From a virus (Duplodnaviria > Heunggongvirae > Uroviricota > Caudoviricetes), in IMG/VR virus record IMGVR_UViG_3300006794_000002: 14,550 nucleotides of DNA; one strand, written 5' to 3'. Made by a program: the position numbers and the translations under genes. Position 1 is the stretch's first letter. Each line of letters begins with the position of its first letter. The notes beneath the pieces were generated by a model that was not told the origin of the DNA, made no database searches, and was given only the letters and a program-made list of their open reading frames with translations. Shown here piece after piece: positions 5,505 through 7,761 of the stretch.

Positions 5505-5817
5505 CGTTGAGCAACTCCAATAGTACGTCTGCATGGCATGGGAGCGGAGAACACCAGCAAGCAAGTGCTGTTGCGTCTTTAAGTGGGCTTAGCCACTCCG
5601 GTTCCTTCTTGACACGTCTGATAGCATAGACCCTGAACATGTCGATCACGAACTGTCGGATCGAATCACGGTCTTTACCAACCTTGTCCGGTGGACAGGC
5701 GATTACGTCCTGTACTCTATAGGGGTTTCCCCAAGGGGAGGGGCGACCGACGTACACGCACCCTTCAGGTACTTTCCTGCCGATCTTCCTCATGTTTAGG
5801 ATGATTTTCGGTGTCAT
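5479..5817 (-). CDS. DUF4326 domain protein
   Basis: Motifs VYVGRPSPWGNPY and LACWCSPLPCHADVLLELLN are the family signature. ATG 5817 lies 7 nt after the -10 of promoter P2 and has no Shine-Dalgarno. Confidence 0.85.
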   Translation of the reverse strand: MTPKIILNMRKIGRKVPEGCVYVGRPSPWGNPYRVQDVIACPPDKVGKDRDSIRQFVIDMFRVYAIRRVKKEPEWLSPLKDATALACWCSPLPCHADVLLELLNDDRVTGEA

Positions 5818-5823
5818 CTGCAC

Positions 5824-5855
5824 AGTTTACCACACTGATGTCACGTTTGTCCAAC
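5824..5855 (-). promoter_or_regulatory. promoter P2, leftward, for the replication/nucleotide arm
   Basis: Minus strand reads GTTGGACAAACGTGACATCAGTGTGGTAAACT: TGGACA (5853-5848), 18 bp, TGG, TAAACT (5829-5824). Confidence 0.75.
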
Positions 5856-5866
5856 CTCAGTGTGGA

Positions 5867-5899
5867 GTATCAATGGATACTAATTGATATCCATGGACA
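5867..5899. repeat. operator-like imperfect palindromes between divergent promoters
   Basis: TATCAATGGATA (5868-5879) and TATCCATGGACA (5888-5899) match at 10/12, are 20 bp apart and are each near-palindromic. GTATCAAT (5867-5874) and ATTGATAT (5883-5890) form an interlocked inverted repeat. Confidence 0.55.
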
Positions 5900-5900
5900 T

Positions 5901-5932
5901 GTTGGACATCAAGGTATACAGTGTGTTAAGAT
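5901..5932 (+). promoter_or_regulatory. promoter P3, rightward, for the SSB-like gene
   Basis: GTTGGACATCAAGGTATACAGTGTGTTAAGAT: TGGACA (5903-5908), 18 bp, TGT, TAAGAT (5927-5932). Confidence 0.75.
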
Positions 5933-5951
5933 GCTCTAGACAACTGTAAAC

Positions 5952-6006
5952 ATGCTTCTACATTGAGATTTAACCCTTTATAGAAGCGTTCACTCTTTAA
6001 GGAGTG
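5952..6006 (+). promoter_or_regulatory. two leader hairpins, the second covering the SSB Shine-Dalgarno
   Basis: ATGCTTCTA (5952-5960) pairs with TAGAAGCGT (5981-5989). CACTCT (5991-5996) pairs with GGAGTG (6001-6006) around a TTAA loop and includes the GGAG. Confidence 0.45.
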
Positions 6007-6009
6007 TAA

Positions 6010-6564
6010 ATGCCAAGAGTACCCGGTGCCGATGAATACGGCCAAGGTGGTGGCGATTTCGGTACGCTAGAAAGCGACGAGTATCGCCTAAAGATTCTGT
6101 CATGGGAAGAGCATGAGCAACCCCTGAACCAGTACAACAAAGACCCGAATGCCAAGAGCATCTGGTTCAAACTGGAACCTCTTCACTACGAGCATGATCC
6201 TGAGGCCGAGTTGGTCGATAAGGACACGGGTGAGCCTATCTCACCTGACAAGACGCTCATCTTCTTCTACGATCCTAAGCGATTGGGCCTTGTGCCGCGT
6301 ATCGCTCGATCACGCATGTTCCTTGCAGCCGCTCTGAACGTGCCGGTCGAAGAGCCTATCGACTTCGATGGCTACGATGATCTGATTGGCAAGGAGATTG
6401 TTGGAAACGTCATTGTCAAGGACGGCAAGAACCGAATTGACTCCGTAAGGCCCGTTAAGCAGCGTGCTAAGCGTTCTACCACGAAGGAAGCGCCAGCGGT
6501 TAAGGCTGCTAAGGAGGTCTTCGGGGAAGACGCCAACGAGCCTGAGGATGACACCGACTACTAG
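6010..6564 (+). CDS. single-stranded DNA-binding protein-like (DUF669-type phage SSB)
   Basis: 184 aa with Shine-Dalgarno TAAGGAG. Has FGTLESDEYRLKI, DLIGKEIVGNVIVK..NRIDSV, then a flexible linker and an acidic tail ending in an aromatic residue (EPEDDTDY), which is typical of SSBs. Lies next to the primase. Confidence 0.65.
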   Translation: MPRVPGADEYGQGGGDFGTLESDEYRLKILSWEEHEQPLNQYNKDPNAKSIWFKLEPLHYEHDPEAELVDKDTGEPISPDKTLIFFYDPKRLGLVPRIARSRMFLAAALNVPVEEPIDFDGYDDLIGKEIVGNVIVKDGKNRIDSVRPVKQRAKRSTTKEAPAVKAAKEVFGEDANEPEDDTDY

Positions 6565-6596
6565 GTTGGACATCCTCTTGACCAACGTGGTATAAT
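6565..6596 (+). promoter_or_regulatory. promoter P4, rightward, for the primase operon
   Basis: GTTGGACATCCTCTTGACCAACGTGGTATAAT starts immediately after the SSB stop codon: TGGACA (6567-6572), 18 bp, TGG, perfect TATAAT (6591-6596). Confidence 0.8.
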
Positions 6597-6601
6597 TGAA
6601 T

Positions 6602-6678
6602 GAGAGGCGGGCCGTTGTTCGCATCAATTCACTTTATGTTGTTCTTGGTTGACAGGGACAGCGGCCCTAACCTCTTCT
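6602..6678 (+). ncRNA. structured RNA leader (long interrupted hairpin) at the predicted P4 transcription start
   Basis: Three nested stems: 6602-6607/6671-6676, 6609-6620/6656-6667 (12 bp) and 6624-6629/6647-6652. They contain five G-U pairs that work only on the plus strand. Confidence 0.55.
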
Positions 6679-6703
6679 CAACACATTAAGAAAGGAAACT
6701 TCA

Positions 6704-6883
6704 GTGCAGGAATCTGATAAACTAAAGGCAATCGCCGTGTTCATGGGTATGCTGATGGTCATGACTTCCGTCAAGGGCGTAAGCATGATGACCAACGAGC
6801 AGAAGGACAAGGCTGCTGTTGAGGCACTCGATACCTTTGAGGCATTCATCGGCGCTATGGGATTCAAGATCGTCGCCAAGTAG
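6704..6883 (+). CDS. 59 aa Met-rich small protein with hydrophobic N-terminal segment
   Basis: Not in the ORF track. Strong AAAGGA then GTG 6704: MQESDKLKAIAVFMGMLMVMTSVKGVSMMTNEQKDKAAVEALDTFEAFIGAMGFKIVAK. Its TAG overlaps the primase GTG by 1 nt. Confidence 0.75.
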   Translation: MQESDKLKAIAVFMGMLMVMTSVKGVSMMTNEQKDKAAVEALDTFEAFIGAMGFKIVAK

Positions 6884-7761
6884 TGTATGAACTACAGGGT
6901 CAGATCGAAGAACTACTCGGACAGAATAGCCGTGGAAGTGGAGTTAACGGGATGTTCCTGTGTCCCTTCCACGATGAGCGCACGCCCTCGTTTAGCATTC
7001 ACCTTAACGAAGGACTCTGGTACTGTTTCGGATGTAGTCGAAAAGGGAACTTGGAAGGTCTTTACCGACAACTCGGAGAAGAGTTAACCGATGAGCAAAG
7101 ACACGATCTTCTCATCGCCTCTGTCTATCGAGAACCCGAAGAGCGAAAGAACTTCGCAGCACTCGCCAATTCTCATCGACGTGCATTTAAGGAGCCAGCA
7201 GGACAAAACCTCTGGCAGTCTTTCATTCGAAGCCGACCTATCCGACGAGACGCAGATGTTCATTTCGGAGTGGGTTACTCAGATGAAAAGGGCGCACTCA
7301 CCTTCCCTTACTGGAACGATGATGGTACAGTTACCGCTATCAAATACCGTTTTAGAGATGGAAGCAAGACTAGTGAGAGTGGCTCAAAGAGAAGCATCTA
7401 CAACGTCACTGATATTGTTGGAAGACCAGTAATCCTGCTATGTGAGGGTGAAAGTGATACGATGGCTGCGTGGTCGAAACTTACGGGGCCAGAAGTGGCG
7501 GTCTGTGGTTCTCCCGGTGCCGGGGTGTCCGAACGGACATGGGCTAATTGGGGTCTTGACTTCCTTTTCGCCCGACGTATCTACGTTGCGTTTGACGCTG
7601 ATGAGGCGGGAGATGCTGGTAGCACAACTGCCATGCAAGTGTTGGGTGCTGACAAATGTATCCGAATCCGACCGACTCGCGGTGGAGACTTATCCGAACA
7701 CATAACGGAAGGGGGAACTCTTGCCGAACTTGGAGTGGCAGAAGCGCACGATAACGTTTGA
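6883..7761 (+). CDS. dnaG: DNA primase, DnaG type (CHC2 zinc finger plus TOPRIM)
   Basis: Zinc finger CPFHDERTPSF...WYCFGC, TOPRIM LLCEGESD and YVAFDADEAGD, and GGDLSE. No C-terminal helicase-binding domain. Confidence 0.9.
   Translation: MYELQGQIEELLGQNSRGSGVNGMFLCPFHDERTPSFSIHLNEGLWYCFGCSRKGNLEGLYRQLGEELTDEQRHDLLIASVYREPEERKNFAALANSHRRAFKEPAGQNLWQSFIRSRPIRRDADVHFGVGYSDEKGALTFPYWNDDGTVTAIKYRFRDGSKTSESGSKRSIYNVTDIVGRPVILLCEGESDTMAAWSKLTGPEVAVCGSPGAGVSERTWANWGLDFLFARRIYVAFDADEAGDAGSTTAMQVLGADKCIRIRPTRGGDLSEHITEGGTLAELGVAEAHDNV

Follow-up and report, generated by a model that had tools for sequence, protein, structure and literature searches.

The window analysed here, a stretch of 14,550 nt, comes from an IMG/VR phage record of 78.5 kb with 51% GC, from which it differs at two mismatched bases (3064 and 3069). 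Its genes diverge from a point at about 5.9 kb, with an exonuclease gene and others running leftward and a 184-aa gene, a 59-aa ORF and a primase gene running rightward. A gap of 139 nt separates the 184-aa gene from the 59-aa ORF. The rightward unit contains the following features.

6010-6564, + strand: gene of a 184-aa OB-fold protein with an acidic C-terminal tail (AlphaFold, Foldseek)
6565-6596, + strand: promoter P4, made up of GTTGGACA (6565-6572), an 18-nt spacer and a TG-extended -10 element TATAAT (6591-6596)
6602-6676, + strand: 75-nt leader hairpin of three helices, P1, P2 and P3 (MFE fold, covariance model R1)
6688-6696, + strand: Shine-Dalgarno (SD) region AAGAAAGGA, conserved as GAAAGG(G/A)A 5-10 nt before the start codon in all homologs
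6704-6883, + strand: 59-aa ORF with a GTG start and homologs in the relatives L010 and L005
6883-7761, + strand: DnaG-type primase with zinc ribbon and Toprim domains (Pfam PF01807, 7e-12, and PF13155; PHROG primase families)

Pfam and PHROG searches returned no match for the 184-aa protein. Its AlphaFold model (pLDDT 73) is an OB fold, for which Foldseek listed PrgE as the top match (E = 1.8e-4), ahead of bacterial SSBs, RPA, PriB and gp32. Because it models as an OB fold with an acidic tail, the protein is probably a divergent phage single-stranded DNA-binding protein, and it is called SSB-like below. The stop codon TAG of the 59-aa ORF overlaps the GTG start codon of the primase gene (TAGTG).

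A consensus scan identified P4 as the top sigma-70-like promoter of the window (TGGACA, 18 nt and TATAAT preceded by TG), matching 11 of 12 consensus positions. Since the -10 element occupies 6591-6596, the hairpin begins 5 nt 3' of it, at the expected +1 of P4, a start that is itself predicted. The P4 spacer also carries the motif TTGAC (6578-6582), located 7-8 nt before the -10 element, which was not found in the other three window promoters of the P4 class. The hairpin itself is composed of the following parts.

6602-6607 (GAGAGG) paired with 6671-6676, + strand: helix P1, 6 bp (MFE fold), five of whose six pairs show compensatory changes among homologs
6609-6620 paired with 6656-6667, + strand: helix P2, 12 bp, with the 3' arm GGACAGCGGCCC; compensatory changes in 7 of 12 pairs, 90% of alignment cells paired
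6624-6629 paired with 6647-6652 (GGTTGA), + strand: helix P3, 6 bp (MFE fold)
6621-6632, + strand: RCA (6621-6623), the P3 5' arm (6624-6629) and the start of the apical loop, UUCAC (6628-6632), aligned without gaps
6671-6678, + strand: CCTCTTCT, the P1 3' arm plus 2 nt, able to pair with P1 or with 6689-6695; this is the segment that the sequence-only reading had proposed as an anti-SD

The MFE fold of 6602-6706 has a free energy of -34.3 kcal/mol (z = -3.14), and one of 200 shuffled sequences was as stable. P1 and P2 together form a near-coaxial duplex of 18 bp to which P3 adds 6 bp across small internal loops, giving about two helical turns and at least ~20 bp of near-continuous double-stranded RNA; the homologous hairpins carry 23-32 pairs. 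Within the window P3 is marginal, with a duplex energy of -3.3 kcal/mol and p = 0.73 against shuffles. The window fold contains five G-U pairs, and the minus strand folds less stably than the plus strand (-28.5 kcal/mol, z = -2.05). When folded as single-stranded DNA, the hairpin reaches only -11.9 kcal/mol, equally on both strands. The fold and the promoter scan thus bear out the sequence-only reading in its description of a three-helix hairpin of about 75 nt at the predicted P4 start, with five G-U pairs favouring the plus strand, and place a structured plus-strand RNA just 3' of P4 and ahead of the primase block, as that reading had proposed.

Searches of metagenomes yielded primase relatives with identities from 76% down to 38%. 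Six distinct relatives carry the element (L004, L005, L006, L007, L008, which equals L009, and L010), and their primases are 62-76% identical to that of the window. Their hairpins measure 69-75 nt and are followed by the SD sequence GAAAGG(G/A)A and a start codon. A covariance model, R1, was built from the seven sequences (the window and the six relatives); it scored the six relatives at 53-92 bits and found a single copy in the 78.5-kb genome, at 86 bits. Three other close relatives, outside the seven, show a gap of 114-139 nt or the start of the contig at the matching place. The order of parts is constant in all seven phages: a promoter, the hairpin, and then 16-27 nt that hold the SD and lead to the start codon. 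A promoter similar to P4 lies immediately 5' of the hairpin in every case, although L010 has a degenerate and L004 an altered upstream 8-mer, and L005 lacks the TG preceding the -10 element. The spacer motif TTGAC is kept in six of the seven (the window, L004, L005, L006, L007 and L010) and could be an overlapping regulator site. The distance from the -10 element to the hairpin is 5-8 nt in six phages. The exception is L006, the only relative in which another GC-rich hairpin (L006:1962-2000) stands between the promoter and the conserved hairpin, occupying the 5'-terminal position and leaving the conserved hairpin 59 nt after the -10 element.

The gene that follows the hairpin differs among these phages. 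The window and L010 have the 59-aa homolog in this position, L005, L006 and L007 another small ORF, and L004 and L008 the primase gene itself; no 59-aa homolog is present in the latter two. The element travels with the promoter and not with any one gene. The 59-aa protein, which is hydrophobic, is shifted relative to the promoter-hairpin unit, lying upstream of it in L005 (L005:1978-2166) and downstream in the window and L010.

More distant relatives, with primases of at most 49% identity, lack both promoter and hairpin, which makes the promoter-plus-hairpin unit specific to one clade. In three of them (L173, L174 and L175, with a primase or SSB-like protein about 45-49% identical) the SSB-like gene abuts the next gene. 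Since no gap lies between the SSB-like gene and the primase block in these phages, the internal promoter and the hairpin were gained, or lost, as a unit. A nucleotide search of phage GenBank gave no match, and a protein search there returned only relatives of at most 28% identity. Primase-profile scans of IMG/VR and JGI data found only relatives of at most 42% identity, and R1 detected no hairpin in those loci; five complete viral records from more distant relatives were likewise without one. DNA-pattern scanning, done twice on viral contigs and once on genome contigs, produced chance matches only, none confirmed by R1 among the loci re-screened (80 of at least 117 in the first viral scan, all 30 in the second and 70 of at least 120 in the genome contigs). 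The primase-profile scan of genome contigs revealed no close relative, so the host was not identified. The conserved 12-mer of the element occurs as one exact copy in the 78.5 kb, with no recurrence that would hint at a regulon.

The hairpin covaries among the seven phages. In the model-based alignment 84% of the cells are paired, compared with 69% in shuffles, and compensatory double changes occur in 12 of the 18 pairs of the two lower helices. The covariation score was 0.534 versus 0.271 for shuffles, and none of 500 shuffles, which ignore phylogeny, reached 0.534 with these seven sequences; sliding the partners by 1-3 columns as a control reduced the score to 0.11-0.18. RNAalifold agreed with this result. 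A MAFFT alignment of the hairpin only was poorer than the model-based one and was left unused. The plus strand is the more stable one in all seven hairpins, by a margin of 1 to 16 kcal/mol, and G-U pairs make up 28 of the 190 pairs over the seven. A P3 helix is predicted in every homolog with differing sequences, a result that is modestly supported overall (Fisher p = 0.009) and weak in the window.

Sequence constraint is distributed unevenly along the hairpin. Four-fold degenerate sites of the adjacent primase genes, 0.49 identical over the 21 homolog pairs, served as the neutral reference. The arms of the lower stem (P1 and lower P2) are only 0.37-0.38 identical, below the neutral level, indicating that their sequence is free to change provided that pairing holds. 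P1 and lower P2 are thus constrained only to pair. In contrast, the upper P2 arms and the stretch comprising RCA, the P3 5' arm and UUCRC are 0.65-0.67 identical, and the upper part of the P2 5' arm, GTTGTTC, is conserved in sequence. The 5' half contains no indels in the seven sequences, with T20, G21, C26, A27 and T33 invariant. The junctions are variable: the window and L010 have a 1x3 junction between P1 and P2, whereas the two helices are continuous in L004, L005 and L008, and the junction between P2 and P3 takes forms that include 3x3 and 0x3. Of the junction parts, the 5' RCA alone is conserved.

The conservation of the 5' strand could have other origins, in DNA or in protein. A DNA-level element, such as an operator or DnaA-box-like site by the promoter, part of a replication origin or a primase loading signal, would suit a 5' half held at a fixed promoter distance without indels and a location within the replication module between the SSB-like and primase genes. 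On the conserved 5' strand, TTGTCCACA, a look-alike of the DnaA box of high-GC Gram-positive (actinobacterial) bacteria, is present exactly in L004 (2424-2432) and L005 (2199-2207) and is matched at 8 of 9 positions in L006 and L007. However, the window copy, TTGTTCGCA (6615-6623), matches at only 7 of 9 positions and has lost the CACA core, and L008 has no box. The box is neither enriched nor clustered in the window (39 matches with at most two mismatches, 41 expected), and GC skew, which tracks gene orientation only, is uninformative for an origin. The compensatory changes and the many G-U pairs indicate RNA, and the single-stranded DNA fold is weak and strand-symmetric. We therefore regard a DNA-level function as improbable. 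Still harder to credit is a leader peptide encoded across the hairpin, whose translation would control the downstream gene. An open frame of 29 codons does span 6600-6689, L007 has a 29-codon frame in the matching register with a similar stretch (PLFASIHF versus PLFTPIQF), and the register TTG-TYC-RCA is common to five of the seven homologs. But the ATG lies 3 nt after the -10 element, where it is probably untranscribed, and no SD precedes it; starts, stops and lengths vary, with a stop after 16 codons in L005 and a different frame in L008. Differences are non-synonymous, and the 3' half tracks the complementarity of the stem, not codons. With no ORF conserved among the homologs, the leader peptide was rejected and the 29-codon frame was judged a by-product of nucleotide conservation. 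Covariation, the greater stability of the plus strand, the G-U pairs and the lack of a conserved ORF together establish the element as a plus-strand RNA structure under selection.

How this RNA might act on the SD is a separate question. The segment CCTCTTCT (6671-6678) can form seven Watson-Crick pairs with AGAAAGG (6689-6695), with C6674 bulged; this pairing draws on the same bases as P1, so the two are mutually exclusive, as the sequence-only reading had noted. That reading went on to propose an anti-SD/anti-anti-SD switch, riboswitch-like, in which opening of P1 by a ligand, a protein or 5' processing would free CCTCTTCT to shut off the first cistron and the coupled primase. Several observations fit such a switch. 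The best partner of the SD overlaps the 3' foot of the hairpin in 5-6 of the seven homologs; removal of the 5' arm in silico raises the predicted cost of opening the SD by about 2 kcal/mol in the window and most homologs (with no effect in L005); and the duplexes of foot and SD, tested against foot shuffles, give p-values of 0.22 (window), 0.19, 0.02, 0.80, 0.51, 0.02 and 0.12, or a marginal value of about 0.015 when combined by hand with Fisher's method. The energetics speak against it. With the anti-SD:SD helix enforced, the ensemble of the full leader lies 4.5 kcal/mol above that with P1 enforced, corresponding to a population of about 3e-4 for the SD-sequestered state, and no intrinsic bistability of the leader is predicted. 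The anti-SD pairing is unexceptional in the window (p = 0.22) and hardly stands out from ordinary leaders: pairing of the SD with the 16 nt that precede it averages -4.9 kcal/mol in 81 leaders of the same genome and -6.2 kcal/mol in the hairpin family (p = 0.04-0.12, depending on the test). L004 has no anti-SD (-1.3 kcal/mol, p = 0.8), and in the MFE fold of L006 the SD pairs with a segment outside the hairpin, a pairing that does not compete with P1. The hairpin also folds before the SD is transcribed, and the junction loops vary in size, so that no ligand pocket is conserved. An intrinsic switch is thus unlikely and its riboswitch-like character finds no support; nor is the element specific to the 59-aa gene that it was thought to gate, since the first gene differs among the phages and the homolog in L005 lies upstream. 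Slightly more plausible, although still unlikely, is processing by RNase III as the main function, in which a cut would set the mature 5' end ahead of the ribosome-binding site and alter stability or translation. The 18 bp of near-coaxial P1 and P2, extended by P3 across internal loops, would present a suitable duplex; this duplex is kept by covariation, and its distance to the SD stays constant in L006 as well, despite the internal position of the hairpin there. But the conservation of the unpaired RCA and UUCRC would go unexplained, as RNase III makes little demand on sequence.

Other candidate functions were discarded. A pseudoknot between the apical loop and the SD was unsupported (Fisher p = 0.66). 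A terminator or attenuator was rejected given that the hairpin has no U tract and 5700-7200 holds no terminator-like site. Antitermination of the put type, known from HK022, was also rejected: terminator-like sites are not enriched (16 against 12.2 expected), and none is convincing on the plus strand in the operon. The P4 element is likewise promoter-proximal, but it is a single hairpin where put RNA has two.

The explanation we prefer, at a probability of roughly one half, is that the element is a cis-acting 5' leader hairpin that serves both as an mRNA cap blocking 5' decay and as a recognition site for a protein or RNase. The transcript from P4 would open with a stable hairpin of about 75 nt and carry the primase and the replication gene block. 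Its lower stem (P1 and lower P2) may cap the 5' end and form a roadblock 16-27 nt before the start codon, which would shield the ribosome-binding site from 5'-end-dependent decay and insulate it from upstream sequence. The upper stem, RCA and UUCRC at the start of the loop would be the most likely recognition site of a putative trans-acting factor, the candidates being an RNA-binding protein, of phage or host, and an RNase specific for double strands. A conserved upper half combined with variable junctions is less expected of a ligand pocket than of a rigid stem bearing a recognition site. As a bound factor would sit within the 30S footprint, it could tune the translation of whichever gene comes first. 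In the full window leader the predicted cost of opening the SD is 1.4 kcal/mol; the intact hairpin would leave the SD exposed, and the default state is hence expected to be ON. This may not hold for all homologs, because in some of them the SD is predicted to lie in a small local hairpin with the leader intact, at an opening cost of 3.4-7.5 kcal/mol. The conserved hairpin of L006 is not 5'-terminal, so capping of the 5' end alone cannot account for its retention.

A more specific proposal, possible but rather unlikely, is a feedback operator whose upper half would be bound or cut by a replication protein of the phage (the SSB-like protein with its OB fold, the primase or the 59-aa protein) or by an RNase of the host. 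Binding or cutting would expose the weak anti-SD foot or obstruct the 30S subunit, and synthesis of the primase block would thereby be coupled to replication status. If true, the hairpin would add a new autogenous control RNA, one that serves DnaG-type primase operons in a clade of uncultivated phages.

No known RNA family accounts for the hairpin, in line with the sequence-only reading. Rfam 15 returned for window positions 6400-6900 only a spurious match to sR3 (9.5 bits, E = 6.9), and a search of the six homolog loci gave nothing relevant. The leader hairpin is new and clade-restricted; it does not represent a new kind of regulation. Roadblocks and stabilising elements at the 5' end are established (review PMC3997798). 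Like the ompA-type stem-loop and the stabilisers of Bacillus, the P4 hairpin is at most about 2 nt away from the predicted 5' end and closely precedes the ribosome-binding site, and its lower stem is constrained solely to pair (concept PMC3997798). By predicted starts, a stem of the conserved hairpin lies within a few nucleotides of the 5' end in six of the seven homologs; L006 has a different hairpin there and keeps the conserved one nonetheless. In a further difference, 5' stabilisers need no conserved sequence, whereas the upper half of the P4 hairpin is conserved.

Translational operators in phage replication genes are likewise established, the T4 gp32 leader being an example (PMC10690425). 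The T4 gene 32 leader pseudoknot, the T4 gene 43 operator hairpin and the gene II leader of f1, on which the gene V protein acts, share with the P4 leader a structured RNA directly 5' of the SD of a replication gene; here 16-27 nt separate the structure from the start codon in each of the seven homologs. The SSB-like gene adjoins, and the conserved loop and bulge bases would suit recognition by a protein. Unlike in those systems, the first gene is not constant, and neither sequence or structural homology nor a loop-SD pseudoknot links them to the P4 hairpin. RNase III sites are found between the early genes of T7 (the R sites) and in the lambda N leader. Those hairpins resemble the P4 element as long, promoter-proximal intergenic duplexes with internal loops before a ribosome-binding site, but the P4 hairpin occurs once per genome without repetition and shows extra conservation at unpaired positions. 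With riboswitches and other SD-sequestering platforms the leader shares a segment able to pair either in the hairpin or with the SD; it differs in having no conserved ligand pocket (its junctions are variable), states that are far from isoenergetic (4.5 kcal/mol apart), anti-SD complementarity that hardly exceeds background and no Rfam family. In its logic, the proposed element would be comparable to the T4 gene 32 and gene 43 operators (PMC10690425) or to the RNase III sites of T7 and lambda. For phages, the csRNA catalogue drawn from IMG/VR (PMC10690425) already lists comparable candidate leader structures by the thousand, and it shares with the present case a covarying motif at most 25 nt from a start codon in uncultivated phages; the text of the paper makes no mention of primase.

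The element thus represents a covariation-supported motif outside any Rfam family, located in the first 75 nt of a predicted replication-operon transcript in phages known only from metagenomes. It opens to experiment the question of how these phages adjust the levels of primase and neighbouring replication proteins, and the split between a lower stem conserved only in structure and a sequence-specific upper part points to a putative binding partner. The SSB-like gene has a leader of its own (5939-6009), from another promoter termed P3, and in this leader the SD AAGGAG lies within a small hairpin (CACTC/GAGTG) preceded by a second hairpin, a structure unlike that of the P4 leader.
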